64,000 nucleotides of DNA from Phoronis australis (Eukaryota > Animalia > Phoronida), in the NCBI GenBank assembly GCA_002633005.1, contig NMRA01000921.1:14740-78739 (forward strand). The letters are read 5' to 3'. A program made the translations under genes and the position numbers. Each line of letters starts with the position of its first letter. The first letter of the stretch is position 1. Positions 6,574-43,583 of this stretch are shown piece after piece. Under the pieces are notes generated by a model. The model was not told where the DNA came from. It ran no database searches and was given only the letters and a program-made list of their open reading frames with translations.

Positions 6574-6942
6574 AGTCCACAACAAGCTGGCTTTTTGAAG
6601 ATTTAACTTTGCCGCCAGTAGCGCCCACTGCCACAGTGTACTGGCCTTCATCATCGGGTGTAACTTGTGACAAAGTGATGGTGAAGTTAGTTTTTCCATG
6701 CGAGTAGTCTGTAGAGCCACGAGATTTAAAGTCACTATGAAATACTCCATCAACATTAATTGTAGAGGGTGGCATAAAGTAAGGGGCTTCAAACAAATAA
6801 CTGCCATCCCATTTCTTCAACACAACTTTGGTAAAGGTTTCACCACTCCCCATTGCATAACTTATCTTGAATTCAGCATTTCCACCATTGACACCAGTGA
6901 CTGTAGGAGTTGAAGTCACACTAAGGGCTGAAACAACAACAC
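6574..6942 (-). CDS. Ig-superfamily gene A: N-terminal V-type Ig exon lacking the canonical cysteines (includes the end of a signal peptide)
   Basis: Strong acceptor (ttttgcttttttcctttttcag) and donor (gtaagt); 369 nt, phase 1/1, open. Translates VVVSA|LSVTSTPTVTGVNGGNAEFKISY...FKSRG...FTITLSQVTPDDEGQYTVAV...SQLVVD, with V-set hallmarks (F-x-x-R, F-T-I-T-L-x-x-V, D-x-G-x-Y). Confidence 0.85.
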
Positions 6943-7149
6943 CTGAAAAAGGAAAAAAGCAAAAACTTACACATTTAACTATACAAAGTATGACTTGCCA
7001 GTCCATTGACCCCTGGCTACTGTGTCTCAACTGCAGGACAACAAAAGATTTGACACAAAACTGTCACTTTTGTTAGTTTTGTAAAAAGATTTAACTACTG
7101 TGTTGTTGTCGGCCATTACATGAGTTTTGGTTCAAAGCTGAGCACTTCT

Positions 7150-7648
7150 TTTTAGAGACAATGATATCTAGAAATTGACTTTTCACATTGCAAAATTTTT
7201 AGACAGGCTGGTTTTTGTGATCGCCGCAAATTCAAATATAGTTTCTGAAACTAGAAAAATTAGCCACTCAGATGAAATGGGCACCATTAAGGTTATCTCC
7301 AACCTTATTTAGTGGCCTCTATTCTAACTCGTATATCAAAAAAACTAAGCTTTGTCAGCTNAGTTATATAACATGTTGCACTGTAAAGGTGGGTGACAAT
7401 CTGCCACAGATGCAGCAGAAGGATGCATCCGCCCACCCTTTAGAGACAATGATATCTAGAAATTGACTTTTCACATTGCAAAATTTTTAGACAGGCTGGT
7501 TTTTGTGATCGCCGCAAATTCAAATATAGTTTCTGAAACTAGAAAAATTAGCCACTCAGATGAAATGGGCACTATTAAGGTTATCTCCAACCTTATTTAG
7601 TGGCCTCTATTCTAACTCGTATATCAAAAAAACTAAGCTTTGTCAGCT
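7150..7648. repeat. ~210-bp direct duplication across a single n (7361), probably an assembly overlap artefact
   Basis: 7150-7360 is nearly identical to ~7438-7648, and the first copy ends exactly at the n. Confidence 0.75.
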
Positions 7649-9104
7649 AGTAAAAGTACATATTTTCTGAAAGAAAAAAGATTAGGGAATATGAAAATAC
7701 TTTTTGAATTAATGTACCATTATCCTTTTTACACAAAAAACCTATTGCCCAAGCCAAGAAAAAGCCGAATAAACTGGGACAAATGAAAATTTCACAGTCT
7801 CCGGTTAATTATTCGGTGAAAACTTGTTTTTGGTACACATATTCTATACAAGACTTAAATATGTTCGCTATTTCAACATTCACTCGCAATGTCAACTGAT
7901 TTTGCAGTGCGTAATTAACTTCATTATCATTAAAACGTATAGTTACCAGCAAACTCTTACTGTTGTTTGCGACCTTTTGGCCTACCTTTATGTAAATAGG
8001 TCACAGTCATGTCCTGAACACATCCACTAAAACAAGAAACTGTAGGAACACTGCATTTATCCAACTTCACTCTTATCAGGCTTCTATTGTGAGTCAGCAT
8101 GTGTGAATAATTGGCTGATAAGCCACCTCTTGGAACTACTTTTGGCTGAATGGATGACCAGGCAATAAAATGATAATTAGCCAAGACCAGTTACTATAAT
8201 GCAACAAAGAATAATGTCTTGCATCACCTAGCCTTGGTGGAAAATGGTATACTGTATTGGCTCAAACAAACGCTTAGAAAAATTCATTTCACGGGGAGGG
8301 GACGCTTATTGTAGTGAGCCTACGGCAGTTGAATCCCGGTTTCCCAAACGGGTAAAATCGGAAGCTAGGATTCACCAAATTTACGCTTTGTGACGTATTT
8401 GTAGCCTATGACAGCCTTTCTAAAAAATTGTGGTGCATTGCTATCAACTTCCATTGTTAAATTACGATAATTTTTCAAAAAATTGGGCTCATCACAGGGC
8501 GAAAACTTGTCGACTGATGCGTCGCTGAATTGCGATCGTCAATAGGAAAACTTGTACTCTTGAATAAAAATATAGTTTCGACTCAACAAATTACCTGAAA
8601 TCTTCCTGATGTTTTACAATTTTTAAAGTTCCTGTGGAGTCCAGATTAATTGCGATTAAGTCCAAATGTGCGCTACATCGTACTCCACAACACGAGAAAA
8701 ATCTCTGGATGAACACACATGTTGTTGTCACGTGACGTTTGTTTTGAAGGTCGTCTGCGTATGAGAGTGAGTGAGCGTGCGTGTGCGGGTCATCGACGAT
8801 AGACTTTTTTGTTACAAAAGGCGGAGGATTATGCAAGTAAATGGCGTTTACTAGATTGTTTTTCACTTGAACGGCTGTAACGTGCAAGGTGAGTGCTGGT
8901 TAACTCACAGATTTTGTGTGCACAGGCCGACTGTCGTTAGTTCTGCCGTGGAGTATTAATAGTCCAAGGCTCGATCTACATGTTGGGGACGAAATGAACT
9001 ACCCGGGCTGTGTGAAATTTCTGGGTCTAACGGAGACACTGACGCAGTGCAGGTCAGTCAGATCGCTGTATCAAGACTATAGTCAAAATCCAAATTCGTT
9101 TTAT

Positions 9105-11240: not shown

Positions 11241-13390
11241 GAACACAATGAAATTAACAACGTCGTTTTACAGCTTGTAAGATTCATAATAAACGTATTT
11301 TGAATATTGCAATGCATGTGTTCCAAAATCTAAATAACTTGGGTCCTATTGTTGTACTCATATTTGTTTTCGCTCCTCTTTTCAAATATTACAGTAAGAA
11401 CTACGTAAAACTCTCTCTGCTAGCTAGATTGTAATCAGCTGATCATATCCGCATGAGCGAAGCCAATTATCCTCGCTGGTGACTCGATGACTAGAGCAGC
11501 TTGGCGGCATCCCTTTGATCGTGAACCGAGCGCGACTCAGCCAAGGTGGATAAATACGGTCTAGTTCAATTTTCCATACCCCACCGTTGACCTTAACCAC
11601 TGGGGTTAGAACCAATCTTATTTAGTGGGAATGTTCATAGCATGAGTTCTGTTGCCCACAGATTAGTCAATCACAATTAAATTTACAAAATTGATGAGTA
11701 TATAGCCGGCCTGTGCCGTCCTGTAATCTTATTAGAGCCGTAGTGCGCACACAACCAGTAACAATAACTTGGATTTCAACTATTCTCACGCGATGACACT
11801 TTAGAAATGCGCGCGTGTGGGCGCATAAGCTTCACGTGTTGCAGAGTTCACAGCAGACATCAAATTTATGGTACGATACTAGCTGTCAAGTTCCGAGTCA
11901 AAGACCAGTTTTAAAATTAATGATGAAATAAAGGTTTGAAAATCAAATTCAGGTGTTTTTTTTGTTTTTGGGATGTTTATGTTGAAGACTAATTAGATTA
12001 GATTAGACACCCTGACTCATTATCAACGTATGGTTCTGCGGCTATCTGTTTTATCTCGACCGCCCGGCGTTGCCCACTTCCAATTGCGTGAAACATGCCA
12101 CGCAAAGAAGATGAGACTCGGGGGTAAGCGGGCATGAGCCAGTCGTCAATCAAAATTTACCGCAAAGGCATTACTCAAAAACAAGTATTTGCTTAAGATT
12201 TTATATTCAAATTACTAAGACTATGCAGGGGTCGACGCTATTCAAATCGCCAGGTCACATTTTGCGACCTAGCCAAAATCCCAGGTCGCATTTTCAAAAT
12301 CCAGTTCGCATTCATAAATGCCAGGTCGTAAAAATTTCCCGCCATTTTTACGCTTCAAATTTGATTTTTTAGATCACCGAGAAAATGTTTAGATTATGCT
12401 CTTACCTGCAGCGTTAAATACTGAAAAATTTCATATCGCAAAACTGAGTTCGTTAATGCAGGTACGGTATTACTGTTCTTCACGACCGCCATTGAAAGGC
12501 CCTAAAGCGCAAGGCAAGTTGCCGACGTGAAAGTTGAATCAGTGCTCCCTAACTGAACGTGCATTCGAGTAGCTACGTTTGCGATGTGAAAAGGGAGAAA
12601 ATGCCCGTTGAAAAAATATCCGTGATTTTGCTAGGTCTGACCTGCTACTGGCTGTCATCAAACTCGTTAAAGATCCAAACTAACTCGGAGGGCCCTCCAC
12701 TTTTTATTAGTAACCCAAATTTTGAAACTTAACTCGACGTTCGAAAAACATCTGACAAAAAAAAATGTGAAACGGTGCCCTAACCGAATGATGTATTTGG
12801 ATGCGCGGGAACAATTCAGTGCAAATTTCATAACAAAAATGTTGTATTTATGCTGTTTACGTACTCAACAATTCGTTTTCTATGAAATGAATAGCCTCGA
12901 AATAATTCCCGACTGCGTGAGGGATTCCATCGCGTAATTCGAGTTTGCTCCTCAATACCTTCCAAGTACGGGGAAAATAGGTCAGTCACAAAACAACACG
13001 CATGTCACTAGTGTTAAGTTTCTTTCGCAGTTATGAAACAAAGCCGGGATTTGGTTTATACATATTGAGAAAAATGTTTTTGAACACTGAATTTGTTGTG
13101 TAAAATGAGAGTGACACACTATATAGGCTGCGTGTCAATTTTAAACCACGAGTGGTCATTTGTATAGTGCGCTATGATGGGCGCTAGCCTGAACCGTGGG
13201 CGCTTAATGGGAAATTCTCAAAGGTTGAAGGGGAACGCTTAGTAAATCAGTGACCACTTATTACAAAACACTTCAAAGGTAGGGAGTAGGCTTGTGCGTG
13301 AGCATTGTCGTCAGTGTTTGCGTTAATAAGATATTAAACGACTGCAATGTAAATATAGATTATTACATGGCGAAGTCGTTATCCCCCGTT

Positions 13391-13482
13391 ATCTAGAGCC
13401 CGAGTGAATTTTGGTGAATTATCGCCCGAGGGGCGTTAGCCCCGAGGGTGATAATTCTCCAAAATCCACGAGGGCTCTAGAT
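13391..13482. repeat. Long imperfect palindrome (hairpin), probably the end of a DNA transposon
   Basis: ATCTAGAGCCCGAGTGAATTTTGGTGAATTATCGCCC...GGGTGATAATTCTCCAAAATCCACGAGGGCTCTAGAT. Confidence 0.7.
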
Positions 13483-13836
13483 GNTGACAGAATAGCTTAC
13501 GAGATTACCTTTTGAACAGAGTAAGAAACAGCAAATGGCCAACAACGTTTGTTGTTCCATTCTGATGTTGCTCTGGACGAATACAGTGCTGATGAATGTA
13601 CACTGTACAGTGTATGTAGACTGTAGTATGAGCAGACGACAAACTTATGGGCGCTAAAGCACGGTTTCTCCTAGTTATCGCTAGATAGCGCTGCTATTTG
13701 CGACTCTCCCGGCGCTGGTCCCTGCGTGTCGCCAAATCTGTTGACCAAACACCTTAACCTACATCATGATTCTACAGCTCCTGATGTCACACGTGGGATG
13801 GCACGTGCTTTTCCGAACGACAGGCATCAACCAGGA

Positions 13837-16800
13837 CAGTGGCGGATCTACGGGGGGGATCAGGGTGTTTATACCCCCCTCACTCAGTGGGCCAGGACCC
13901 ACAAAAAGTAAAAGACAAAGACGTCTCCAGGAAAACAAGAACGACAGCGCCAGCGTGTGTAAACCCCAAGTAAACCAACTTGGAAAAAATTGAGAGGAGG
14001 GGGGGTTCACTCTGAAAATGTGAATTTTTTGCATTGCGACTGCTGTTATGAAAATCAACGCATTTCAAGTCTTCGTGGCTCATCCAGCAAAACGGCGCTT
14101 CCTTCGACAATTCCAGTGAACTGAGTAGCCAAGCATTTAAGATGACTCCACCGCTCAGCTGAAAGAGCAGCCCTATAGCTGACTTCTTTAGGGAACTAGC
14201 TTCTTTACTCAAAGATATGTTTTGATTTAATCAGGGAAATAGTGTGCCGGGTGCCGCAACCCTGATAACGAAGGCGAATCTACTAAAGTTGACGTGCAGC
14301 GTTTTTACCTCATCTGTCATGCCGTGTCATTCCATTGTACCTCACACATTTGTAACTCGAATTTGACTGGTTTATAGTAAAGTTGTCTTGCGCAATATCA
14401 TACAGTGTACATGTATTTTTTTAAAAGAACTCGTTTTCCGAAGAATTGCTATTGTCGCGGCGGCGCACGGTGGCCTGGTCGCGAGTCCGTTTGAAGATGC
14501 ACTCTAACAAGCTACGTCTATACAAAGAATGACCAAGGGGGCACTCACATTGACAAAGTGACCACATTCGCGAACAGTGTAGAGTACCAGAAATAGCGGG
14601 GAGGCTGTATTTTCACAGCACTGAAAGTCTTGCGGGACTCGTGCGATGTTCAATAGGCCTCCTAAGGAGCTCTAGTTCTGACCGTCAACACCTACCGTCT
14701 TTCTACCTGCAATAAGCACCAGTGCCGTCTATACTGGAAATTTCCACAAAAAGGCCCACCTGATGAAACGCTCATGCCCATGAGCATTTATTTGATGTTA
14801 GTACTTGGAGTTTAAGCGTTCAGACATTGGGACTTTTATTCAGAAAACTGCAAGATATGCAAATAGGTCCTAGGATATATCGTCTAGGTTTGAAGTAGTT
14901 CAAGATGAACGGATCAAAATTAGTTGCGCATGTACGTCTTTTGCCCGAATGGACTTGGCAACCTCAGGGGGCTTAGTGCCAATTGACATATCGCCAGGAT
15001 TTTGAGTGACGGCTTATCTGACCGTTTAGAAAGCAGCATTATTGACACACCTTTGTTTCCAAACCGCCATTTTACCCGACAAACAAAACGTTGCGGGGTA
15101 AAACTTATTGCTTGTTAGTCGACATTACGCAAGGGGCGGACCCCTGCGAAATGTACCTCAGTTAACCATGGTTAACCATGCTTAACCATGGCTGTACAAC
15201 CATGGTTGACCATGGTTNGATTCTGGTTTGTATTTCCACTTGGCTCTATCTGCTTCATAACCAAAATCTATTTCACGTAGTGCGTATTTAATTTGTACTC
15301 AATACTTGTTTCTTCCACTAGTTAGTACTAGAGAACGGTGCAAAAACCCTTCCAAGACAACCTCTCGCAGCAGTTGACGAGCAGATGTATAAAATACACG
15401 TATGAGCAACCACTGGGCATTAAAAAGTGTCTAGAGAGAAGTTTTCAATTCAAAATGTTTTGCATAGTACGCTTTAGGTCTCGCGACGGACCAGTCCAGC
15501 TTGATTTGTGTAGATATTCAGTTTCAGTGTACATGTGGTCCCTCGGTGAACTAGTCTTGTGATGTTTTTTATCTAACTGTGCTTTTTAAAACTATTTGTC
15601 TCAGCCAGTAGGCCTAATGTTTGGTCCCGCCGCGACAGATCGACTATTTTTATAGGGATAATAAGCACGGGTGCACTTTTGGTCTCGTAACGGACCAGGC
15701 CAGCCTTTTTGTGTATTCTCAGTGTACATCTGCATGGTCGCTCTGCGAACTCAGTGGTCCTGTATATCTTTTTACCACCATGAATATGTTTTGGTTTCGT
15801 GAAACTGTTTTCAGATGATTTGTTTCCTGACACATTTGTCGTTTTTCAATTGTTGTCAACATGATTCAGCTTAATAAAGTGATACCAGGAAGAGATCTCT
15901 TCCTGGTGATACTTAATTGTTTATTGTCGCATTTTTCAATAGACTATGAGCTGAGAGCACCATCGTTCGCCACTTGTTCTCGTAACGAGACAAAACACAT
16001 GTTTATTTCCGGACTAACAGAACAGGTCTTCGTTCTTAAACAACTTGAGGGTGCTGTTACGCGATCATGTGATATTCCATTTTTACGCCCCGTCGGTGCT
16101 CCTTATGCTCTTGAATATTTGGTAGTTGTCTAAACCCCACACTTTTTCGTATACGACTTTTCGTATGCTAAAAAAGGTGTGTGCAAGCAGATGTTCTAAC
16201 AAAATTTTTGGCTGGTGACGTGACTCATACCCAGATGTGCACAAATATGGTTTCGTGAAACTCATGAGCCTCGTTCATGTGAAGAAATCGAGAAGGGTTT
16301 TAAATTATCTTAAGAAAAACTCAAGAGACATGTTAAGTGCCAGAAACTTACCAGGATGCATAAAATTTCAGTATTTGGCTACAAAAACAAAACATTGTCT
16401 TACACCGGAGGGAGGAAACCCCCTCCCGACCTCCCCCCTCTCGGCGCAACGCGCCTCGGATTCGACCTTTGCGGGAATCCTAAACCCCCCTTACTGAATA
16501 CGTAGATCCGCCACTGCAGGATCCATGAAGACGAAGTGCATGCCAAGTGGCGAATTTAAGTGGAAAAGAAATCTTTGTGTCCGACGTTGAATCAACTCTG
16601 TTTTAAAACCCCTTTGTTACAATTATTCTTAACATATTACAATTACGCCGATTTCTGTTAACTAGCGGTGCCCGTAACCTCAGCATAAAACTCGTCGGCA
16701 AATATTTTTTAAATCTAGCGAAGAAATCGAAAATTGGGCGATTTTTGAAAATCATAATATTCCCAGTTCGTTTTCGGAAAGCTATGGTGCCATAGTGTNG

Positions 16801-18272
16801 ATAGGCTAACGTTCCTGGAGAAACACGTATTAAGTTATAATTCTACACACATGGTTTGTACATAATGTCGGTTTGATATGCTTGTGTACAATGAAAACGA
16901 AATAGAAATTATTTTTCATGTGGTCATGCCAAATTTACCCAATACTGTAGAGGGTCTTCGAGCACACACAAACTGATTCTGGTTTGTATTTCCACTTGGC
17001 TCTATCTGCTTCATAACCAAAATCTATTTCACGTAGTGCGTATTTAATTTGTACTCAATACTTGTTTCTTCCACTAGTTAGTACTAGAGAACGGTGCGAA
17101 AACCCTTCCAAGACAACCTCTCGCAGCAGTTGACGAGCAGATGTATAAAATACACGTATGAGCAACCACTGGGCATTAAAATGTGTCTAGAGAGAAGTTT
17201 TCAATTCAAAGTTTTTTGCATAGTACGCTTTAGGTCTCGCGACGGACCAGTCCAGCTTGATTTGTGTAGATATTCAGTTTCAGTGTACATGTGGTCCCTC
17301 GGTGAACTAGTCTTGTGATGTTTTTTATCAAACTGTGCTTTTTAAAACTATTTGTCTCAGCCAGTAGGCCTAATGTTTGGTCCCGCCGCGACAGATCGAC
17401 TACTTTTATAGGGATAATAAGCACGGGTGCACTTTTGGTCTCGTAACGGACCAGGCCAGCCTTTTTGTGTTTTCTCAGTGTACATCTGCATGGTCGCTCT
17501 GCAAACTCAGTGGTCCTGTATATCTTTTCACCACCATGAACATGTTTTGGTTTCGTGAAACTGTTTTCAGATGATTTGTTTCCTGACACATTTGTCATTT
17601 TTCAATTGTTGTCAACATGATTCAGCTAAATAAAGTGATACCACGAAGAGATCTCTTCCTGGTGATACTTAATTGTTTATTGTCGCTTTTTTCAATAGAC
17701 TATGAGCTGAGAGCACCATCGTTCGCCACTTGTTCTCGTAACGAGACAAAACACATGTTTATTTCCGGACTAACAGAACATGTCTTCGTTCTTAAACAAC
17801 TTGAGGGTGCTGTTACGCGATCATGTAATATTCCATTTTTACGCCCCGTCGGTGCTCCTTATGCTCTTGAATATTTGGTAGTTGTCTAAACCCCACACTT
17901 TTTCGTATACGACTTTTCGTATGCTAAAAAAGGTGTGTGCAAGCAGATGTTCTAACAAAATTTTTGGCTGGTGACGTGACTCATACCCAGATGTGCACAA
18001 ATATGGTTTCGTGAAACTCATGAGCCTCGTTCATGTGAAGAAATCGAGAAGGGTTTTAAATTATCTTAAGAAAAACTCAAGAGACATGTTAAGTGCCAGA
18101 AACTTACCAGGATGCATAAAATTTCAGTATTTGGCTACAAAAACAAAACATTGTCTTACACCGGAGGGAGGAAACCCCCTCCCGACCTCCCCCCTCTCGG
18201 CGCAACGCGCCTCGGATTCGACCTTTGCGGGAATCCTAAACCCCCCTTACTGAATACGTAGATCCGCCACTG
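13837..18272. mobile_element. Non-coding TIR DNA element (CAGTGGCGGATCTACG...CGTAGATCCGCCACTG); its right part is assembled twice
   Basis: 16-bp perfect TIR at 13837 and at both 16501-16516 and 18257-18272. CAGGA flanks both ends. No transposase ORF recognised. Confidence 0.75.
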
Positions 18273-18554
18273 CAGGATCCATGAAGACGAAGTGCATGCC
18301 AAGTGGCGAATTTGAGTGGAAAAGAAATCTTTGTGTCCGACGTTGAATCAACTCTGTTTTAAAACCCCTTTGTTACAATTATTCTTAACATATTAGAATT
18401 ACGCCGATTTCTGTTAACTAGCGGTACCCGTAACCTCAGCATAAAACTCGTCGGCAAATATTTTTTAAATCTAGCGAAGAAATCGAAAATTGGGCGATTT
18501 TTGAAAATCATAATATTCCCAGTTCGTTTTCGGAAAGCTATGGTGCCATAGTGT
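15219..18554. repeat. 1.58-kb direct duplication (15219-16798 and 16975-18554), probably two haplotypes joined in tandem
   Basis: Offset 1756 with only scattered substitutions. The first copy is bounded exactly by single n bases (15218, 16799). Confidence 0.85.
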
Positions 18555-18779
18555 TGTTTCCATATAGTTTTACATTTGTATTTCAAAGTTTCTACATAAC
18601 AGTGGATGCAACACTTGAATGAATATCAGCATCAACAGCAAATTACAAGAAACCATCTAGAAAAAGACCTAACATTAACATTTCAAGTGAAGCCAACATA
18701 ATGAAAAAACAATAATTACCCGAAAAACTAGCAGAATAATAAGCAAAACACTTACAGTAAACTGTAATAACAATTAACA

Positions 18780-19530: not shown

Positions 19531-19566
19531 ACTGGCACACCGCTTGTCTTTGATGACTTCAAAGCT

Positions 19567-19649
19567 TTAAAAGGCGGTGATCATCACCATCACACCAAAG
19601 GCTGCCCCGAGTAGGATTTTGTTTGGAATATCGTCGCATCCAACCGACA
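19567..19649 (-). CDS. Gene B terminal exon encoding a GPI-anchor-like C-terminal signal
   Basis: Acceptor ctctttttgcag, phase 1. Translates (V)SVGCDDIPNKILLGAAFGVMVMITAF*: small residues, a polar spacer, then a 16-residue hydrophobic tail ending at the stop. Confidence 0.65.
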
Positions 19650-24152: not shown

Positions 24153-24188
24153 CTCCACCTTCTCCATTTCCAATTGGTTTAACGGTAT
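24153..24188 (-). CDS. Gene B stalk micro-exon A (36 nt): (D)TVKPIGNGEGG
   Basis: tttacag|ATACCGTTAAACCAATTGGAAATGGAGAAGGTGGAG|gtacgt; phase 1/1; paralogous to four other copies. Confidence 0.75.
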
Positions 24189-26654: not shown

Positions 26655-26690
26655 CTCCACCTTTTCCATTTTCTGTTGGCTTAACAGTAT
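26655..26690 (-). CDS. Gene B stalk micro-exon B (36 nt): (D)TVKPTENGKGG
   Basis: tttccag|ATACTGTTAAGCCAACAGAAAATGGAAAAGGTGGAG|gtatga; phase 1/1. Confidence 0.75.
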
Positions 26691-27531: not shown

Positions 27532-27561
27532 CTCCACCTTCTCCACTTCTAGTTGTAGTGT
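27532..27561 (-). CDS. Gene B stalk micro-exon C (30 nt): (D)TTTRSGEGG
   Basis: tttgcag|ACACTACAACTAGAAGTGGAGAAGGTGGAG|gtatgt; in-frame 6-nt deletion relative to the other copies. Confidence 0.75.
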
Positions 27562-27758: not shown

Positions 27759-27794
27759 CTCCACCTTCTCCACTTCCAGTTGGTTTAATAGTGT
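27759..27794 (-). CDS. Gene B stalk micro-exon D (36 nt): (D)TIKPTGSGEGG
   Basis: tttgcag|ACACTATTAAACCAACTGGAAGTGGAGAAGGTGGAG|gtgtgt; the donor is weaker than in the other copies. Confidence 0.7.
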
Positions 27795-30945: not shown

Positions 30946-30981
30946 CTCCACCTTCTCCACTTTCAGTTGGCTTAATAGTGT
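30946..30981 (-). CDS. Gene B stalk micro-exon E (36 nt): (D)TIKPTESGEGG
   Basis: tttgcag|ACACTATTAAGCCAACTGAAAGTGGAGAAGGTGGAG|gtatgt; phase 1/1. Confidence 0.75.
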
Positions 30982-32257: not shown

Positions 32258-32573
32258 CAACTTGCAGCCCTGAGGGGGCCAATGTTTGGACAATTTCTAG
32301 TGTGGGTGTGTGTGTCAGTGACACCACACTGAACATTGACGCATTAACACATATAAACAATCTCAGATTCAGTGATTGTAAAAGAGATGACGGGTTCACT
32401 GATAACGCTACTTCCATTGACATGCCGGCACCACATGTACTCGTGAGATGCGGGAATTGGTGGAGATGACGTGACACCTCCACAAGTCAAACTGACTTGA
32501 TCCTTGATGTAGTAGTCAAATGGTGATCGTTTTTAACATACTTGAATGTCAGCATCGGTTATAGGCACTGATG
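32258..32573 (-). pseudogene. Decayed Ig (C2/I-type) pseudo-exon within gene B
   Basis: Good acceptor (cttcttttcttttaatttttcaaccag). Phase-1 reading SVPITDADIQVC*KRSPFDYYIKDQVSLTCGGVTSSPPIPASHEYMW...VYMC, then a +1 frameshift to NASMFSVVSLTHTPTLEIVQ. One in-frame stop; 316 nt is not a multiple of 3. Confidence 0.6.
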
Positions 32574-33029
32574 CTGGTTGAAAAATTAAAAGAAAAGAAG
32601 CCATGAAATATACATTCTCAATCTAATACGGCAAGGTGAAATTCCTTGTCGAAACCCACCAATTGCACTTGGCCCATATTATGGAACGAAAACTGCTAGG
32701 AACTGTACGTAACTGCGATGAAGGGATACGTTAACACAGCACTCTCTAATGATGATGAATTTCTATATAACAAGTTTATTCAATGTATTTCAACCACCAG
32801 TCCTGAGGTATGTGTTGTGATTTTTGATTCAAGAATCAATACATTAAACTAATTAATTTTAATAATTTATCTTTTGCACCAACTCAGTTTCAGATTTGAT
32901 GGAGAAACGTTACATGGCTTGAGTTCTCCCCCCACCGCCTGCCTACGTAGGGAAGACTACTTGGCATTCAAGAAGAGCAGAAATCATCTTCAATCTCTTT
33001 TCCCTACATCAGGGGGATTTCAGAACACC

Positions 33030-33360
33030 TATATACGTCTAGTTTATATCCCTGATGATGTCAACACCTATAGGAAGCCCGTTAACAGCCTGAGAAACGA
33101 ACTAGTCCACCTCAAGGATCCCACCCCCTCGATCCCCAATGTTGTCATATCTCAAATGTCTTGCACTGAAGATCCATCTCATACCTACATCTGTGAGACT
33201 AAGCGATCCCTAGGTACCAGAATCAAAGAGCACAACAAACTGGACAAGTCCACAAGCATGGGAGAACATCCCGGAACATCTGGCCATACTGTAAGTGGTA
33301 AATGTGCCAAAACACTGTCTAAAGAAGAGAACTGGATCTCAAAGGAAGTTAAGGAATAAT
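33030..33360 (+). pseudogene. Penelope-like element GIY-YIG endonuclease remnant
   Basis: LRNELVHLKD...NVV-S-MSC...YICETKRSLGTRIKEH...S-MGEH...GH...K-L-KE-NW...KE matches the Penelope endonuclease pattern, with YIGET degenerated. Confidence 0.75.
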
Positions 33361-34158
33361 GAGACACAATATGGCAGACAAGAGAAATTTTACTTTGTCA
33401 AAGTTAAGGAATTTGTTATTTATTTTTTAACCCTTGTCTGTGTAATGTAACGGTCTCCAAACAATTGGTCAAATTTTGAGAATTCAAGCTATTTACTAAG
33501 CTTCTGAAAATCAGAGAAATGCAAATTTTAAGAACTACTTTTGTCCATGATTGAAAAATTTAAAAACAAATTATCAAGTATTTCATTATGGGTCAAAAGA
33601 AACAATAATTGCTACAGTAGTTATTTTCTATGCAAACTTGTTGATTCAGTTCGTGACTTACGAACCTTGATTGGGGGTTTCAGAATGAACTGTTGAACTA
33701 GATTATAAAATACACTGTAGACAGTATTTGACTGTTGCTGCCTATACCAAAACTGACTGTGTCTACTTGAACGACCTCACAAAACATCTAACTGTAACAA
33801 ATCTGCGGTACATTAAGCCAAAGTTCGACAAATCAACTGGTAGATCAAGAATTGGTAATTAGATTTTGCAATTTCAACCTGACATATTGTACCAGTCAGT
33901 ATAATTTGACCTAAAATCGCGACTCAGAAGACCAGACCTTGGAGTAATTTTTGGCCAGGGAAATGTGAAAGGCTTACCACATTGAAGTGGAGCAAACCTT
34001 CAAGATTTGAAAGTAATTCTCATGTTTTGACAATGCGTTGACATTTCAGAATATATGCATACAATTGTCCACACATAAGTACAATTTGCATAATGTTTAC
34101 GATAATCCCATACACAGTACAATTTTTTCAAGAGGAAAAAACAGAGTAAGTCTTCTGC

Positions 34159-35867
34159 AACAAGAGCAACGCGGAGCTTTGAAATGCGTCCACGAATGCA
34201 TCGCAAATGCTGTGCTTTTAGGGTTGCTTATTTGTGTCATAAAATGGGTACTAGATGGCTCAAAAACATGTAATCCTTCCGAATATGGGAACATGTCACT
34301 GATTCTTTAATAGAAATCTATACACAAAATTCCAAATTTCATAGAAATCCACCAAGGAACTTCAGAGAAACAAAGGAAAATGGAATAAAATGAAATTGCC
34401 ATAAGGGGGCACTCCACCTGTCTATTGTTTGCTTCATATAAATACATTTACTAAATTTAATAAAGATCCTCCAGTGGATTTAGGAGATACAGCTTTGGGC
34501 GCAAAACAAAACAAAACTACCACTAGGAGGAGCCAGAGTAGTCAAAGCCGTCATCATCAACCGTCCTCTTCACACTGAGAACATATATGATATGCTTAGG
34601 ATGATTTGGTTGATAGAGAGGTAGACTCGAAAACAGCAAAAAAATGGCCAATAGGTGATGCAAATTACGTTGATTCTATCCAAAAATGGGAGGATTGCGT
34701 CATCTCATCAATAGATGCCCGTATTCAAAATTTTATGGAAATCTGTTGAGGACCTTTGAACATACAGAGGTAAACGTAAAACTTAAATTGCCACCAGGGG
34801 GAATATCAGTATTCAGATCCATCCCAAAATAATCTTCGTTCGTTGTCAACATTATGTAAACACACTTATTAATTTTAGTAAAGATCCTACAAACAGTTAA
34901 GGAGATATAGCTATGGGCACAAAAACAAACTGTCACTAGGAGGCGCCACAGTAGTCAGTCATCAGAAAATCATCATCAGCCGTTAACTTTATAATAAAAA
35001 CATATATGCCAATTTTCACAATTATCCTGAAAGCGGATTGGTTTATAGAGGGGTGGACGCCAAAAGACAGACTCGAAAACAGTAAAAACGGCCACTGGAT
35101 GGCAAATCCATCTGAAAATGGAAAGACAGCATCACCTAACAGAAGCCTGTACGCCAAGTTTTATGAAAATACTTGAGGACCTTTGAAGATTCATAGGAAA
35201 ACATAAAAAATAAAATTGCCACTAGGTGGCACACCAGCCAACAGATCTGTCTGAAAGTCATTGTCGTCCATTCTCAAAATCATATAAATAAATGCACTTA
35301 CTAAATTTAGTAAAGATGCTGCCAAACGGTTAAAGAGATAAAGGCATAGGCACCAAAAATAAAACTGCCACTAGGAGGCGCCACAGTAGTTGAAGTCATC
35401 AGAAAATCATCGCCAACTTTCATCTTCATAGTAAAACATACATGCCAATTTTCACAATCACGCTTAAAGCAGTTTGGTTGATAGAGGGGTGGACATCAAA
35501 AAACAGACTTGAAAACAGTAAAAATGGCCATTAGGTGGGGCAAACCACCTCGAATTCATCCGAAAACGGGAGGATGATGTCATTTTACTACTTATGTACC
35601 AAATTTCATGAAAATACCTTGAGGACCTTTGAAGGCAAATGTAAAAAAACAAATTGCCACTAGGGGGCACACCGGTAGCTGGATAAGTCGGAAAGTTCGT
35701 TCATGACGTCCCATTAATGAAAGGAATACATGTCCAAAACTTCATGAGCATACCTCAATCGGTTTTGGGGATGCCAGAAGCTGGGCACCGGAAGCCAGAC
35801 GGACGCCGCTCGGACGGACGCAGATGACAGCATAATACGTCCATATATAAATATGTGGGCGCATAAT
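34159..35867 (+). mobile_element. Helentron/HINE-like element, family 1
   Basis: AACAAGAGCAACGCGGAGCTTTGAAATGCGTCCAC start, about 3 core units, GACG repeats, and 3' hairpin ending ATATGTGGGCGCATAATAA. Confidence 0.75.
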
Positions 35868-37663
35868 AAACCAAATTTGAGGGTAACTAACAGGAAAGTT
35901 AGTAAAAAGGTGAAAAGGTCAACCTTGAGACAGAAATTAAAACCGTGTTTCTGTTTCTGCTTCTGTTTCTGTGCTGACGTCAGAGGGTAGGCACCGGGAT
36001 AGTCTCTGGTACTCCTCCTTGCAGTATCGCACGCACTATAAATTTGGAGATGCTGTGCCTGTACTAAAATTTCTGGTCTCATCTAACATGCCATTCTAAC
36101 CAGGTGTCCTATAACTTTCAATTTTTTGGCTAAATGGACAAATGACCCTAAAAATTAGCTCGATTTTCATGTGTGTTGCTAATTCTTGTCATAAAAATGC
36201 TAATTATGGGTATTTCACTATACTATCAAATTTGTGCAATCACATGGACCCCAAACTTTATAAAAATAACATCTCAACTTTGGCACATAATTGACCTCAC
36301 TAGGTCAAAGGTCATCTCCTGGATATCATGGTGCCGTATGCCGTCCACTACAAAAGTGTTAAATAGTTAAGTTAATGTTAAGTTTTCAATCACAATTAAA
36401 TTATTAATTCCTGATTCTTATTTAACTAGTTACGCAATATAGACCAAAATTTTAGATCCTAGGAATTATTTGTTCAGTCAGAAATTGCGTGACAGACGTA
36501 CAGCGAATTTGTACGTTCGTCACCTCCGTCCATCACAGCCAAGAAATTACAATATTTCAGCCAATAAAAATAAACTTCGGTCATATTTTACTTTCAAACC
36601 TTGCAGAAGATAAACTGTTACAGTTGTTGACCACTTGTATCATTAGGAGGTGACACCAACAAGAAAACAATACATTACAGAAAGGGTCAATATATATGGC
36701 CACATCAGGCTACATTTGAATTTTCACAATTCTAATTCCAAAAGCAAGTTTTCAGTCAGCAGCTTTTCTGCTGACTTTTCCTAGATTTAGATTGACAACA
36801 GATGCTCACCAATGTGTCAAATCTTCCTTTTTGTTCCCTCACAGTTAGGCAGCTGCACAAAATAATGTGAAAGTGAAAACAATAAATTTTGTAAACCACG
36901 CTGCCTGACCTAACCCTAACCTCCACTTTCACTTTGACATGATTCTCTAAACAGTGTTGAGCTGGGAACAGATTTTGGGCTTGGCCTGCCAAGCTCTCAG
37001 TTGTTTAGTCTTGTGTTTGTAAGCAAGCAGTTCCTGACCTGGCATAATTGGATGATTCTGACTGGGCCATGGTTAAGACATTAAATGTATCTTGGTGTAA
37101 TAAGTTCTCTGTGTATGGGTCTTTTGTTTTAAGTTTAACAGTGGTGTTTTAGGAGATTTAATTGAAAGATATCATGAAAATTAGATGGTTGGAAGACTAC
37201 AATAGTCCATATCTCTATGCCATAAAGAAATCTTGTTGAAGAAACGTAGTGACACAAATATACACATTTCCATGGTGCATGCGGACACAGTGAAATAGGC
37301 CTACCCTCCACTATATGAAAAATGACCCCTATAAACTCAACTTGGAAACACCAGCCACTCGCATGTGGAAATCCTGCTGTTACTTGTCAAAGTAATTATA
37401 TGCATTTACTAAGGTATTCACAAGTGGTACTTATTCTCTTACTTCACATTTTTTGACGTGACAAAACGGTAGGATTGTCATTTTCGAGTTCTTTTATTGG
37501 CATTTAATGATTCTTCATTGTTGTTGAAGGTCAGGCCAAAATTTGGGACCCATTCAACCTCATGTTTACTGACTTTCTAAAACCGCTCTGAGGTGGTGGC
37601 GTATTACAACTATTATTAAAATCTCTTGGTCTATTTACACCGACCTCTAGTCTATATACACTG

Positions 37664-37707
37664 TCACGACGTTTCGGTCGGTCTATTCGCCGGCCGTCAT
37701 CAGGTGT
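37664..37707 (-). ncRNA. Minimal type-I hammerhead ribozyme motif (Penelope-type)
   Basis: Minus strand: CAC-CTGATGA-CGGCCGG cgaataga CCGACC-GAAAC-GTC-GTG. Intact CUGAUGA/GAAA core, stem II, palindromic ACGU stem III, GUC cleavage triplet, and CAC/GTG stem I. Confidence 0.65.
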
Positions 37708-37740
37708 TCCCGCGTTCTTAGAAAAACACCACTACACCAC

Positions 37741-37822
37741 GGAGTCATGACGTAGTGGTTAATGTGCTGGACTCTAATTATCTGTAGTTTCAGAAGTCGT
37801 GGGTTCAAATCTTGCCTAGGAC
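37741..37822 (+). promoter_or_regulatory. Pol III internal promoter (tRNA-derived SINE head)
   Basis: A box TGACGTAGTGG (37748-37758) and B box GGTTCAAATC (37802-37811). No clean cloverleaf, so not called a tRNA. Confidence 0.6.
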
Positions 37823-39469
37823 AAAAAATGACACCATGAGTGTACCACATATCCATGCTCGTTCTTCTAAGAACGCGGGAACACCTGTCGATGGCCGGAG
37901 AATAGACCAACCGAAACGTCGTGACAGAGTAAATAGACTAGAGGTCGGTGTAAATAGACCAAGAGATTTTAAAAATAGTTGTCTCATGTTTACTGTTAGG
38001 TATAGTGAAGTATACTGCAGTTGCAACTTCACTCCAGCCTCGCTATATCACAATAAGTACTGTGTTGTAATTTTATTGAGTGTTAACTAGCTTTAAATGT
38101 CAAGTATCAAACAGTTGCTCTGATTTTAAAATCAAAGTTTTAACTTGTCTTATTTCATATCTTGATTCTCAAAAACCTACATGTCCCAGACTGTTTAGGA
38201 GCTGTTTCAATTAAATGCAAGTGCTAGTTGAAAACATTCTTTGAATGTGCTCACCAAATGGCACCATAAAAGCAGCTGGACAGATTGTGGCAAACAATTT
38301 ATGGTTGCAACTGGGATGTCCCCAACCTCAACAAACTCCAACCTCTTGAAATGTTTATCTAAAACATGCTTTATCAGTTAGTTGTCAAGGTTACGAACTT
38401 AAGCGGCCTTTTCAAACTGCCTGTAACTAAAGGACTTACAATACAGCTGGATTGGTAAGACTGTACACTGAACTTAATGTAGATATATGCAGTATAATAT
38501 TTGATTTCATTCAACAAGAAATAATTACTTCATAAGCATTCAGTCAAAGTTGGAAAAATCTTTCAATTTTGAGTAAAATTAATTGCTGGGTTTTTTATTA
38601 TTCCTGGCTATCTGTTCATTATCAATCTCACTGCAATGATGGGAAACCCCCATTTCAGTTGATACTTCGTATCATGGTGATGACAAAATGAATTCATGGA
38701 TCATCCTTATCATTATTCAAAGTTAAGTAATAAGAAATTTCATAAATTATTCTAACTGGTGAAAAGACGTGCATGAAAATTATATCAACCGTGCGTTAAA
38801 ATGTGAATTTTTGTGAAACATCATGTACCATTCATAGGAATTCAGAAATGGTTTATAAGAATTGGATTTAATTAGATTTGTTTGCAAGCTACCAGTTACA
38901 TTTCTTTTCCAATCAATGTGGAATTTACACAAAACGTGTATCGTGAGTAGCTCGAAGCCTATTGTATTTGGTTGAAATCAGACGCAAGATGGCACTGTAG
39001 ATACCATTTTTCGCTGTCTTGGTTTGCGGAGCCGTAGATTTACAGGTTCTATAATTTTTCTGATTTCTTTTTAGGGGAAAAATCATTTAAATGACCATAA
39101 GAAGTGTCCAATTTGTTTTTTTCCTTAGGACTTACTGTTTTGGAGTTATTCAAAATTTTCCGGCGACTGCTAGATAATCGAATCAATTTTTGTTCGGCAT
39201 CTCTGGCAACACTTGCCGTATCTTTCTTGAAGCCAGTATATAGATAGTGCTATCTGCATTGTGCCATCCATTTCACACTATAACCTACCTTTTTCGAGAT
39301 ATTCAAGATTTACTAGCCACATGAATGTTGTTCTGTCGACTTACTGGTACTTTTAGCTGCACTTCGGTCGCCTATTATATTCGTGACAGAGATTGTTTGT
39401 CTGATTGACATTGATTTACTTAGTGTTTATCTAGTCAAAAGCGCGAGCACTGGTTTGTGGATGAACATG

Positions 39470-40333
39470 TACATCAATTTTCAATCGTTAGAATGGTTTG
39501 GTTAATAGAGAGATCGATGCCAAAAAAACAGACTCAAAAACAGTAAAAATGGCCATGAGGTGGCGCAAAATACCTCAAATCCATCAGAAAACGGCAGGAT
39601 AGCGTCACCGTACCAATACGATGTCTACATTTCAAATTTTTCGAAACTCTGTTGAGCATCCTTGAATATACAGAGGTAAACATAAAAACTAAAATTGCCA
39701 CTGGGGGTTGTAACGGTAGTCCGATTCATGCAAAAGTCATCATCATTTGTTGTCAACATCGCATAAATGTACTTGCAACATTAAGTAAAAGATCCTACTA
39801 ATGGCTTAGAAGATTCAGCCATGGGTGCAAAAAAAACTGCAACTAGGAGGCGCCACAGTTCTCGAAGTCGTCGGAAAATCGTCGTCAGCCGCACTCAACA
39901 CAGTAAGAACATATCCGTCAATTTTCAAAATCATCCCCAGAGCGGTTTGGTTGATAAAAGGGCGGATGCCAAAAACAGACTTGAAAACAATAAAAATGGC
40001 CACCAGGTGGCGCAAAGTGCCTCGAATCCATTCGAAAACGGGAGGATGGCATCATCTCACTAATAGATGCCTAACTGCTAAATTTTATGAAAATCCATTG
40101 AAAACCTTCAAAGATACAGAGGTAAGCGTAAAAAATTAATATTGCCACTAGGGGGCACACCGGTAGTTGGAGAGGTACGAAATTCGTTGTCATCTGTCGT
40201 CAGCTTGATATGAACACACCTGCCAAATCTCATTCAGATCCTGTGAGGGGTTTAGGAGATACAGCTGAGGATGCCAGACGCCCAGACAGAGATGACAGCA
40301 ATATGCGACCACATATAAATATGTGGGCCCATA
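39470..40333 (+). mobile_element. 5'-truncated family-1 HINE-like element
   Basis: Two core units plus 3' hairpin ATGCGACCACATATAAATATGTGGGCCCAT. Confidence 0.7.
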
Positions 40334-40659
40334 AAAATAAAATTGATGAGTTTCTAGACATCTAGCCTACTATATTTTAATCTCTAACAATAAGACACTC
40401 ACAGAAAAGATGAGTCTTAAAGTGAAAGCGAGGTCACAAGGCAGATCTGTCTTGTGACGAAAATGAAAGCATAGAAGCGCTGACATTAAACTTGTCATTG
40501 TGCTTTTTCTCCTCCGTTTTAAAGGGGTGGGGGGGTGCAAAATGGAAATTATTATCTATTCTGGGCTTGAGATTCGTTGGCAGGACAAGACCATAGCAAC
40601 CGTGACGACTATGATCACATTGGTGGATTACAGTACCACAACATGATGAGCATAGTCAC

Positions 40660-40950
40660 AATGATTCGGGGTGTACCCAGATCCTGAGAGAAAAATCCAC
40701 AACACACTTTTACGAGTACACCGAAAATGATTTGGAGTGTACTCAGAGCCTGAGAGCAGAATACACCAACACAATTTTATAAGTACACCCAAAATGGTTG
40801 GGGGTGTACCCAGAGCTTCAAAACTGAATACACAAACACAATTTTATGAGTACCCCAAAAATGATTTGGGGTGTACTCAGAGCCTGAGAGCTGAATACAC
40901 AAACACAATTTTGAGTACATACAAAATGGTTTGGGCTGTACCCAAGCCAG
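40660..40950. repeat. ~60-65-bp minisatellite
   Basis: Repeated GGGGTGTAC(C/T)CAGAGC...AATACACAAACACAATTTT...GAGTACACC-AAAATG units, about 4.5 copies. Confidence 0.8.
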
Positions 40951-42372
40951 ACCAGATGAACTCGCGTCATGCAAGGCCATTCAGGTATACCCTAAACTTG
41001 ACATGACTGTGAGCTCTTTCACAAGGCTACCTGAAACCCTGCACAATTTATTTTTTTTATCAATTGTTCATTTCCATGATAAAAGTTCATTTGAAATAAT
41101 AACATGTTTGTATCTCACACCTAAGAACCTTAAAATGAAAAAATGATAGTACAAAGGCAGCTTAATAATTAAGTGAATAAGTTGCTGCAGATTTAAACTA
41201 AATGCATTGGACTTTTTCAATTTCAAATTTAAAGTATTTATTTTGTAGAAAAGTTATAGTTTAAATTGTCATCTACTTATTCTTAGTAGAATTCATTTTA
41301 TTAAAATCAGACAGTTCAACTACATTATAAAATGTAATTAAAACAAAATGTTAATTAAATGAAGTTAATATTTCTATCTGTTGGTACCCTGTGTTTGTAA
41401 AAAATTGCTTAGATTTCAGGAAAATCAAGATGCAAAAATATTCATATAAAAAGTTCCTAAGGTGCTCTAGAGTATAAATAACAAAAGACCTAAAGGAAGA
41501 TATGTCATGTTGCTGTGGCAATGTAATCAACATGTTATTGTTGCTCTGACCTGCCAGGCTGCATTTGTGTTGAAAAAGCCGATACTGGGCATTTTTAAGC
41601 CGTAGGGACCTACCACCTACTTTACAGAGTACTTTTTCACACCCTCACTGTAGTCACTCGTTTTGTGTCTTTCAGTGCATTGGGCCATTGGGTGGCTCAT
41701 GTATGAAATGATTTCATAGCCATCATTGTCTCTGAGTAATCTTTCATATTCATGATCCCTGGATCTTTTTAAGAATTAGGCTATTTTTTCTGCTGAGCCT
41801 CGCGTAGATTAAACAGGGGTTTAGAAACGTTAGAGCAAATTATTAGAGACAACGGGAAGAACAGAGAGATGCAGCTAGGAGAAGAATAAATATCTGCTGG
41901 AATTCTCTGAAAACATGCAAATGTGAATCAAAAAATTGATAACAGTACTCTACTTGCGTGTACTGTGATGTGACATCAGCTTTACTACTATATACATGGG
42001 CATGGGTCAGAACCATCAACAACATGGCCCAGAAAATAATGTTAGTTCAAGTTGAGGGCGAGCTCTCATTTCAAAAACAAATAATTAAAATGTGTTCTCA
42101 TTCAATGATTATTTAATGTTTTAAACTTTGTTTCACACTTTGTATTTTGACAGTCACATTTGTTTATTAGTTTTGAGTTTCTATTCTATTTAACCCATCA
42201 AAACATTTTTCCTGATAAACTAACAGCTGTCAAATACAAAATGATTGTCGCTTTCATTTCCGTTTGTATTGCTTACCATCTTCAAAGGAAAGAGAAGATT
42301 TTTGGGGGTTGTTTCACATCTTTAAACAAATGTATTGGAAAGTTAACATCTTAGAATATATTTGTAACATAC

Positions 42373-42408
42373 CGCCACCTGTGACGATTTCGTGCAAATG
42401 GTCAGTCA
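42373..42408 (-). CDS. Gene B micro-exon F (36 nt): (V)TDHLHEIVTGG
   Basis: atgtag|TGACTGACCATTTGCACGAAATCGTCACAGGTGGCG|gtatgt. Same length, phase and GGTGG-G|gtatgt ending as the duplicated micro-exons. Confidence 0.55.
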
Positions 42409-43259
42409 CTACATTTAAATAACATTGATTCATAGTACCAACAGACCAATATAGCTTAAATAGTGCAAATGTATTAATTATTCTGAATTGATATCTTTAA
42501 GTCACAAAAAACAACTTATTACTACAAATTCAGAGCGTACATCCGTCACTAACTCAACTTAATATGTCAAGCTGTCTCACAAAAATTTCTTAGAAGATAT
42601 TGTCAAAAAAATTAGTGTGTTGTACTTTGCAAACATTCCACTAATTCTTCATATAAAACGAAAATTGTAACTTTATGCCACTCAAAGAAAATTAACCTTA
42701 ACAAGTTAAAAAAATAATTCAAATTGTCTGCGTAATTCCGTCACACCTCAGACAATTTTCTCAATCAGACCAAAAGTTAGGGGAAAAGCTGTAATTGCTT
42801 TGAAAGCCATCAATGACACCTATCAAACAGGAACTGAACAAATAATTGCACTGAGCTCCTAGCGATGAGTCTAGGGAACATTTTGTCCACTTGTAATTCC
42901 TTGAGGTAGGAATTTTTGGAAGTTGAAGTTGTTAACTGACTGGCATTTTCTATGAGTCAAATGGTTCAAGTGGTGTTGAAAGGTAGAGAGAATGCAATGT
43001 TAACAAACAAATTTGAAAGTATCCCAAGAAGGCAAAAATACAACAGATGAAATTAAGGTCATGAAAGAAAACGTATAACTATGCATTACCAACGGTGATT
43101 ACTGAGAAAGCACATCTCAATGTATCTTGGAGGTTACAATAGAATCGTGGTTCATTACAACAATTTCCTAAGTAATATGTAGTTACTGACATCCTACTAA
43201 TGCATATTGTAACCTAAAACAGGAATGAGTACCATGACACAGTTTAAATAGCAACTTAC

Positions 43260-43583
43260 CGGTCGCCTTAAGGACCTCAGTTTCAGCGTACAAAGTAGCC
43301 TGCCTGTTGGACACTTGACATCTAAACTGTACGCCATCATCAGCTGCATCCAAGTTGACCGTCAGTGTGCTGGTGCTGTTAGTGGTTCCATCATTGTTGT
43401 TGGCAGTAGTCTTGGTAACATTCTCTGTTATGTCTGTGTAGGCACCGCTACTTATTCGCCGTGACCACACCATAGATGCCTGTGGTTTGCCCAAATTGGC
43501 CGTACATATGAGAACAGTTGGTCCTAATCCACCAAGAACAGGCTGCGTCAGGGCACCAGATATAGATGGTGTACTTGGACGGA
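43260..43583 (-). CDS. Ig-superfamily gene B: C2-type (CD80/nephrin-like) Ig exon
   Basis: aacag|...|gtaagt, 324 nt, phase 1/1, open. Translates RPSTPSISG...TVLICTANLGKPQASMVWSR...DGTTNSTSTLTVNLDAADDGVQFRCQVSN...; canonical C, GxP, W, S-x-L and D-G-x-x-F-x-C are present. Confidence 0.92.

Follow-up and report, generated by a model that had tools for sequence, protein, structure and literature searches.

Expressed V-C2 immunoglobulin-superfamily transcripts with a cysteine-free V domain and a predicted GPI anchor in the phoronid Phoronis australis

Do the immunoglobulin (Ig) exons scattered along this piece of Phoronis australis DNA encode one kind of expressed protein, and what could such a protein do? 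A preliminary description read them as a tandem cluster of GPI-anchored V-C2 genes. We analysed the same 64,000-nt stretch (the window, to which all positions refer) together with three RNA read runs, X1, X2 and X3, for which 15 of 761 splice joints and 24 of 3523 loose ends were listed and examined. All named exons (Table 1) lie on the minus strand at the positions first given, with AG/GT ends in phase 1, and the distance of 12.6 kb from the terminal exon to the V exon is correct as well. Introns in the window reach up to 12 kb, and repeats or LTR elements make up about 40% of it. The CpG observed/expected ratio of the whole window is 0.80. Vertebrate genomes are strongly CpG-depleted, and the ratio is in favour of the earlier label “invertebrate”. 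An Rfam search of the window gave no match.

Table 1. Exons and mobile elements of the locus.
Feature	Positions	Strand	Remarks
Gene B C2-set Ig exon	43260..43583	-	324 nt, phase 1-1; Pfam C2-set_2, reads and joints
Apparent broken third Ig-like exon	32269..32573	-	phase-1 acceptor; 3' end uncertain; by eye
Stalk micro-exon m1	30946..30981	-	36 nt; Thr/Pro-rich, Ser-Gly-x-Gly motif
Stalk micro-exon m2	27759..27794	-	36 nt; Ser-Gly-x-Gly
Stalk micro-exon m3	27532..27561	-	30 nt; Ser-Gly-x-Gly
Stalk micro-exon m4	26655..26690	-	36 nt; joints from C2, m1, m2 and to m5
Stalk micro-exon m5	24153..24188	-	36 nt; joint from m4, loose end to terminal exon
Terminal exon, predicted GPI signal and stop	19567..19649	-	sequence inspection and loose-end reads
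Candidate leader exon, gene A	13509..13560	-	ATG, hydrophobic core, phase-1 donor
Gene A V-set exon	6574..6942	-	369 nt, phase 1-1; signal-peptide end and V domain
Foldback-type DNA transposon	44181..45806	.	directly upstream of C2 exon; second copy 1-1511
BEL/Pao LTR retrotransposon	50156..56786	+	LTRs 93.7% alike; within presumed V-C2 intron of gene B

Transcript structure

The V-to-C2 junction proposed from the exon ends is found in the reads. Loose ends at the start of the C2 exon match the ends of V exons (137 reads at 43583 in X1, 209 reads at 43578 in X3), and at position 6574, the end of the V exon, 359 X3 reads continue into the C2 start. Further downstream, GT-AG joints connect C2 to m4, with 51 reads in X1 and 59 in X2, and m4 to m5, with 175 and 179 reads respectively. 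m4 is also reached from m1 (81 and 72 reads) and from m2 (89 and 74 reads), two micro-exons that are identical at 34 of 36 nt and between which read mapping is ambiguous. The length of the stalk differs among transcripts; of the five tandem stalk micro-exons of the window, m3 takes part in none of the 15 joints listed out of 761. Reads with a loose end at 24153, 272 and 243 of them, continue into the sequence of the terminal exon. The transcripts do not assign V-type, C2, stalk and terminal exons to unrelated genes, and no transmembrane and cytoplasmic exon replaces the terminal exon among the 15 of 761 joints and 24 of 3523 loose ends listed. A scan for acceptors between 24152 and 13560 points the same way: 3 of 94 phase-1 acceptors passed a hydrophobicity filter, one being the terminal exon and the other two being weak, with no support among the reads listed.

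The C2 exon matches Pfam C2-set_2 with 34.1 bits (cut-off 21); its domain carries Cys26, Trp39 and Cys88 as well as two N-glycan sequons, and the top Atlas match is a CD80-like C2-set domain (score 0.97). By inspection, the terminal exon encodes a small-residue omega site (S-V-G in the window, S-A-G in the majority of reads), a polar spacer and a tail of 16 hydrophobic residues (mean Kyte-Doolittle value 2.39) before the stop, with no cytoplasmic tail. The protein is therefore predicted to end in a GPI anchor signal, and the GPI-type, stop-bearing exon of the preliminary description is borne out by these features together with the reads from the last micro-exon. At the other end, five leader candidates, three of which share a single stretch, were listed for the interval from 19567 to 6942, and the putative leader exon of gene A fits best among them. 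A search of the window that allowed up to 3 mismatches found neither of the two leaders present in X3 reads.

An intron of gene B holds an apparent third Ig exon, which is broken. It shows the spacing of Cys, Trp and Tyr-x-Cys, interrupted by two in-frame stops (TAA, 32535 and 32346), and a pattern for this spacing, written after the exon was seen, matched 1 of 300 resampled introns. Same-strand reads stack at 32503 (143, 101 and 225 reads), all with another letter. Searches of Pfam and PDB with this exon returned no match. As to the two foldback-type copies, we considered a segmental duplication and rejected it, the identity between them ending at the terminal repeat of the transposon.

The V domain and its expressed versions

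The V exon matches Pfam V-set with 31.8 bits (cut-off 26), and alignments to pIgR and CD7 place V-set hallmarks at G19/G20, R74, I88, D97 and Y101; PMC9546547 gives these hallmarks as Gly16, Arg75, Leu89 (hydrophobic), Asp98 and Tyr102. Its 122 residues contain no cysteine. Ile26 and Val103 align with the canonical positions, and the Cys23-Cys104 disulfide is absent. Cysteine is likewise missing from the related protein P0027 (see below) and from the three F-G loose ends listed for X1. The only tryptophan, Trp44, lies 18 residues past the Cys23 position, in a column that holds Leu in the main version of X3 and no Trp in P0027; judged from the alignment, it is likely not the pin residue Trp41. 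AlphaFold models (pLDDT 36.8 and 35.0) are too low in confidence to place Trp44 or the C'' strand, and since the strand labels used here are taken from sequence alignment, the face they define is a predicted one. In the Atlas, the three highest-ranking look-alikes of the V domain are mostly unannotated V-set clusters (scores 0.95-0.96), and their commonest recorded phylum is Cnidaria, the phylum being known for only 2-5 members. Huene et al. (PMC9546547) stated that they were aware of no domain outside Alr, V-set or I-set, in which both the disulfide and the tryptophan are missing; the Phoronis sequences appear to form such a pin-less V-set family outside Hydractinia Alr.

A single full-length relative was found, P0027, an unnamed singleton of 146 aa from an ENA contig of 1139 bases. 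It is 34-36% identical to the V domain over nearly its whole length (E = 1.2e-09), has no cysteine, matches Pfam V-set with 27.9 bits and appears to represent the same exon, translated on into the flanking intron sequence. A word-index search returned P0027 only among 248 near-length candidates, and nothing among longer proteins for V (1182 candidates) or C2 (391). A full HMMER protein search gave 209 matches at E up to 0.001, with 150 listed. Eleven of these were inspected: seven are bacterial-type multi-Ig repeats, one is a fish pIgR-like protein, one is P0027 and two, dinoflagellate light-harvesting polyproteins, are chance matches. Metagenome scans yielded 129 and 596 pattern matches, none confirmed as a related locus. 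We found no published description of such a family, a weak negative from a search that did not use the species name and had most subscription journals outside its scope.

How many versions of the V domain are expressed, and where do they differ? At least six distinct versions are present in X1 and X2, and the reads establish a multi-member family, expressed at 139-173 reads per million on the V exon. The window's own V is also present, with 171 reads in X1 and 123 in X2 at 99% or more identity, and read depth is confined to the V exon limits. Most reads on the exon are less than 90% alike (1490 of 2209 in X1, 1179 of 1748 in X2). In X1 the depth is about 1200-1500 at residues 85-103 compared to 67-124 at residues 34-72. 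The D-E-F strands are thus conserved within the family, whereas the predicted C-C'-C'' and F-G segments vary from member to member. X3, whose version set is unlike that of X1 and X2, shows a nearly flat depth of 370-530. Compared with the window's V, its main version carries 19 amino-acid changes over 122 residues. The corresponding pN of 0.087 and pS of 0.10 give a dN/dS of 0.86 (from 33 of 39 differences), a value that compares two sequences only, which may be alleles or paralogs. The ratio does not exceed 1 (p = 0.83 in a Fisher test for departure from equal rates), and relaxed constraint fits equally well. Twelve of the 19 changes fall on the predicted face, which comprises 46% of positions, and this clustering is not significant (p = 0.10). 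No indels were listed among the V-exon reads.

Proposed function and alternatives

Tentatively, we favour the following explanation: the expressed leader-V-C2-stalk transcripts with a predicted GPI end come from what are likely two tandem members of an abundant invertebrate cell-surface family whose cysteine-free V domain probably binds microbes or non-self cells through its predicted, fast-diversifying GFCC'C'' face. The leader would take the protein into the ER, where the hydrophobic tail would be exchanged for a GPI anchor. A glycosylated stalk would hold the protein out, with units of 12 residues added or skipped, and the Ser-Gly-x-Gly sites of three stalk units might serve for glycosaminoglycan attachment. 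The C2 domain, locked by its disulfide, would be a spacer. Such a protein could be an adhesion ligand, a docking site or a sheddable decoy, and because it would have no cytoplasmic tail, it would signal solely via partners, as do GPI-anchored CEACAMs. CEACAM N-domains (PMC8860441) and domain 1 of Alr2 (PMC8282982) diversify likewise. A signalling paralog with a transmembrane helix or ITAM/ITIM was not seen in this analysis, which counts against the explanation. More speculatively, and rather improbably, this could be a second pin-less V-set family, independent of or sister to Alr, that serves as a polymorphic GPI-anchored self-marker or a microbe-sorting coat, with splicing tuning both stalk length and glycosaminoglycan load.

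Could the proteins mark self instead? They would then bind homophilically and allele-specifically through V between cells, as Hydractinia Alr1 and Alr2 do, but from a GPI anchor, a possible though doubtful alternative. The V domain appears pin-less like domain 1 of Alr, Cnidaria is the commonest recorded phylum of the top three Atlas look-alikes (again known for only 2-5 members), and the variable segments include strands C and C', on which the specificity of Alr2 depends (PMC8282982). However, the Phoronis protein has no Cys-less I-set domain, no Fn3-like spacer, no transmembrane helix and no cytoplasmic tail, and allelic polymorphism and paralog variation are pooled in the reads.

We consider it unlikely that these are structural surface-coat glycoproteins that turn over by birth and death under relaxed selection, with no partner driving their diversification. 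A dN/dS indistinguishable from 1, the apparent broken exon of gene B, the repeat content of the window and the high expression would all fit, but expressed members do not diverge evenly along the domain, the D-E-F strands being spared, and no indels are listed for the V-exon reads.

More unlikely still is a neural or developmental adhesion code like that of Dpr/DIP/IgLON or Beat, in which heterophilic V-V binding gives cells their identities. Wirin domains keep their canonical cysteines, and no full-length relative was found among named proteins. An amino-acid turnover that is recent and close to neutral also argues against such a role, as does the high expression in bulk. In its favour, the version set varies between samples, there is a weak match to Dpr4 (E = 0.12), and the two-Ig GPI-type architecture also occurs in Wirins (PMC10084454).

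It is likely that the window's exons belong to two neighbouring family genes. tblastn with the V and C2 exons found one copy of each within the 64-kb window, and as gene B's own V and gene A's C2 are not directly seen, we infer the second gene. The tandem cluster first proposed therefore stands as far as exons of an expressed, spliced multi-member family are concerned, while the cluster itself rests on two half-genes. The least likely reading is a single gene whose V and C2-stalk-GPI exons were mis-ordered by scaffolding, or an orphan gene B that lost its V exon. In favour of it, the 20 kb upstream of the C2 exon hold no V exon, the window has no other C2 copy, and single-N joints at 7361, 13484, 15218 and 16799, two of them with near-identical duplicated flanks, lie in the interval from the terminal exon to the V exon. 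Against it, introns of this stretch can span 12 kb, the number of expressed V versions is at least six, and the V end found most frequently at this C2 start in X1 is not that of the window, although 171 X1 reads match the window's V at 99% or more identity.

Comparison with known systems

The label “CEACAM/CD2-like” holds for the architecture but not for membership. CEACAM N-domains lack the disulfide and retain the C-strand Trp, and we know of no tandem micro-exon stalk in CEACAMs. CEACAM is a vertebrate family, whereas the CpG ratio of the window speaks against a vertebrate host. CEACAM chains were absent from the PDB matches listed at E up to 1 (40 of 40, 60 of 177 and 40 of 40). What CEACAM5 and CEACAM6 share with the Phoronis protein is an N-terminal IgV-like domain, one or more IgC-like domains and a GPI anchor, and the N-domain is both the binding and the fast-evolving part (PMC8860441).

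CD2/SLAM proteins (CD2, CD48, CD58) have the disulfide-free V plus C2 layout in common with it. CD48 and one form of CD58 are GPI-anchored, and the family belongs to vertebrate lymphocytes. Kinship is not significant (CD2, E = 0.22-0.48), and Pfam Receptor_2B4 reaches 15.8 bits (E = 0.017), under its cut-off of 21. CD2 has been noted as an exception to the V disulfide (PMC12051499).

Wirins (Dpr, DIP, IgLON) and Beats differ by their conserved neural roles, and they gave no significant match, Dpr4 being the best. The canonical cysteines are present in domain 1 of Wirins, whereas the Phoronis V has none. Common to both sides are two or three Ig domains, a GPI anchor in IgLON and expanded paralog sets (PMC10084454).

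The V domain also resembles that of Hydractinia Alr. Shared with the Alr family (PMC9546547) is a V-set domain in which the Arg-Asp salt bridge is retained while both cysteines and, apparently, the pin Trp are missing. In both families each domain has its own exon, divergent paralogs are clustered, and transcripts are alternatively spliced, with pseudogenes or an apparent broken exon alongside. Only Alr has six invariant cysteines, Cys-less I-set domains and an Fn3-like spacer, followed by a transmembrane helix and an ITAM/ITIM tail, and its Cys23 position is aromatic, whereas that of Phoronis is Ile. The likeness to the pin-less domain 1 carries the doubt over the placement of Trp44. Domain 2 differs from Alr, being a canonical C2 (Cys26-Trp39-Cys88) that splices to micro-exons and leads to a GPI-type, stop-bearing end.

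Lineage-specific Ig expansions are common in invertebrates, which limits the weight of the finding. What stands out is an apparently pin-less V joined to an ordinary C2 and a GPI-type end. For comparative immunologists, the family offers a cloneable candidate for invertebrate non-self recognition that is abundant, multi-member and diverging on a predicted face, and a test case for whether the CEACAM/CD2 design has arisen more than once.

Exon layout and splicing of the Ig genes

The window is animal DNA with a GC content of 38% and long introns, and its CpG observed/expected ratio of 0.80 argues against a vertebrate origin. Every internal exon has AG/GT ends and phase 1-1, and the V and C2 exons are each single copy within the window by tblastn. 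The Ig gene set is real and expressed.

Features of the window
Feature	Position	Strand	Remarks
C2-set exon	43583-43260	minus	Pfam above cut-off
Apparent broken third Ig exon	32573 to about 32269	minus	two in-frame stops
Stalk micro-exon m1	30981-30946	minus
Stalk micro-exon m2	27794-27759	minus
Stalk micro-exon m3	27561-27532	minus
Stalk micro-exon m4	26690-26655	minus
Stalk micro-exon m5	24188-24153	minus
Terminal exon with stop	19649-19567	minus
Leader exon, candidate	13560-13509	minus
V-set exon	6942-6574	minus	Pfam above cut-off
Signal-peptide exon	58578-58431	minus	ATG, complete signal peptide; acceptor before it; possible phase-1 donor at 58497; no match in Pfam search
BEL/Pao LTR retrotransposon	50156-56786		1029-codon open stretch; LTRs 93.7% alike
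Gypsy-like gag/pol fragments	1511-2600, 4090-4600	minus	by eye; two scanned pieces, no Pfam match
Tandem duplicates	15219-18554		98.8% over 1580 bases
Tandem duplicates	7151-7648		99.5% over 210 bases
Repeat, period about 449 bases	24619-26037, 34400-35900, 39460-40340		three intronic clusters

Splicing was followed in three stranded 2026 RNA runs (X1, X2, X3) carrying the common species label, with about 18-19% of each run used. Over 24000-43900, where the inspection took in 15 of the 761 joints along with 24 of 3523 loose ends, the joints listed include GT-AG joints from C2 to m4 (51 reads in X1, 59 in X2), m1 to m4 (81, 72), m2 to m4 (89, 74) and m4 to m5 (175, 179), and the loose ends at 24153 (272, 243) match the terminal exon. 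The loose ends found at the start of C2 carry V-exon ends, bearing out the V-to-C2 junction predicted in the preliminary description. Two consecutive units of the m1/m2 type lie within single reads (63-79 in X1); from these reads and the joints, the stalk comprises two to at least four units among transcripts, and alternative splicing cannot be told apart here from allele or paralog differences. In X3 the C2 exon is covered, yet the micro-exon joints hold just 0-2 reads, and its main transcript therefore carries a different 3' part.

The third Ig exon is probably a genuine broken exon. Its pattern, composed after the sighting, recurred in 1 of 300 resampled introns, same-strand reads with differing letters stack over part of it, and Pfam and PDB searches gave no match. 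This suggests that three-domain paralogs exist and that gene B, which holds the C2 and stalk exons, now skips it.

Versions of the V domain

Expression on the V exon amounts to 139-173 reads per million, with depth limited to 6574-6942; the inspection covered 40 of the 146 rows of differences, together with 18 of 113 loose ends. Identity to the window exon reaches at least 99% in 171 of 2209 reads (X1) and 123 of 1748 (X2), while most (1490 and 1179) lie below 90%. X1 depth is highest over residues 85-103 (about 1200-1500), lower over 2-34 (about 290-380) and 104-122 (103-239), and lowest over 34-72 (67-124); that of X3 is nearly flat. The X1 loose ends listed include three close V ends as well as three F-G ends that are distant, hence at least six versions are present; these would mean no fewer than three loci were the run from a single diploid animal. 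In the V-set alignment D-E-F appears conserved and C-C'-C'' and F-G variable, the latter being described as the binding face of CEACAM (PMC8860441) and Alr (PMC8282982) domains.

The main X3 version differs from the window V domain at 19 of 122 residues, with a dN/dS of 0.86 (33 of its 39 differences), indistinguishable from 1; 12 of the 19 changes fall on the predicted C-C'-C''/F-G face, a clustering that is not significant (p = 0.10). Because its two leaders have no match within the window, this version is likely a paralog, and the leader exon at 13560-13509 stays a candidate. Some reads (12 in X1, 10 in X2) join V-exon end to V-exon start (6574-6935, 7 differing letters), representing either a V-V paralog or a back-spliced, single-exon circular RNA.

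The V domain has no cysteine at all. In the alignment Ile26 and Val103 take the V-set cysteine positions, and Gly, Arg74, Ile88, Asp97 and Tyr101 are retained. The fold, and the place of the sole Trp (Trp44) within it, are predicted from sequence; this Trp is substituted in the X3 version and in P0027, the one full-length relative. The three best look-alikes in Atlas, a protein cluster resource, are mostly unannotated clusters whose commonest recorded phylum is Cnidaria (2-5 members each); those of C2 lean, on equally few members, to molluscs and arthropods.

Repeats and surroundings

Within-window repeats or LTR elements make up about 40% of the non-N bases. Both tandem duplicates flank single-N joints and are likely allelic overlaps from scaffolding. 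The Gypsy-like fragments are broken up by a foldback transposon and a 41-base satellite. The roughly 449-base repeat is an abundantly transcribed family (stranded depth up to about 1300-fold, reads mostly 90-95% alike). The signal-peptide exon may open the coding region of a further secreted-protein gene. CpG observed/expected is 0.46-0.61 inside gene B (40001-44000, 32001-36000, 20001-24000) and 0.94-0.97 at 12001-20000, surrounding the leader candidate, a pattern consistent with methylation of the gene body and with a promoter at about 13.6 kb.

Proposed working and known systems

From its leader the encoded protein runs through V and C2 to a stalk rich in Thr, Pro and Gly and ends in a tail of GPI-signal layout, and this anatomy, which we hold with high confidence, is much surer than function. 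The protein would be GPI-anchored through the predicted tail signal, with an O-glycosylated stalk whose Ser-Gly-x-Gly units in m1-m3 may carry glycosaminoglycan, and the V domain would bind a partner. Having no cytoplasmic tail, it would serve as ligand, docking site or decoy. Because expression is high, the versions are numerous and one face turns over fast, we tentatively favor recognition of microbes or non-self cells as the best-fitting function. Allorecognition proper is an unlikely account of the family; a coat protein under relaxed birth-and-death is somewhat less probable, and a neural adhesion code slightly less again. A single gene or misassembly is the least probable explanation.

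A literature search, weak since it omitted the species name, found no account of such a V-C2-GPI-type family. The CEACAM/CD2-like architecture proposed earlier holds for layout but not for sequence kinship: GPI-anchored CEACAMs would work alike and CD2/CD48 are similarly laid out, but the PDB matches listed show no significant kinship of the Phoronis family to either. Huene et al. (PMC9546547) ascribe a pin-less V domain to Hydractinia Alr, other cases not being known to them. The remaining domains of Alr are absent here, but the oddity of the V domain appears common to both.
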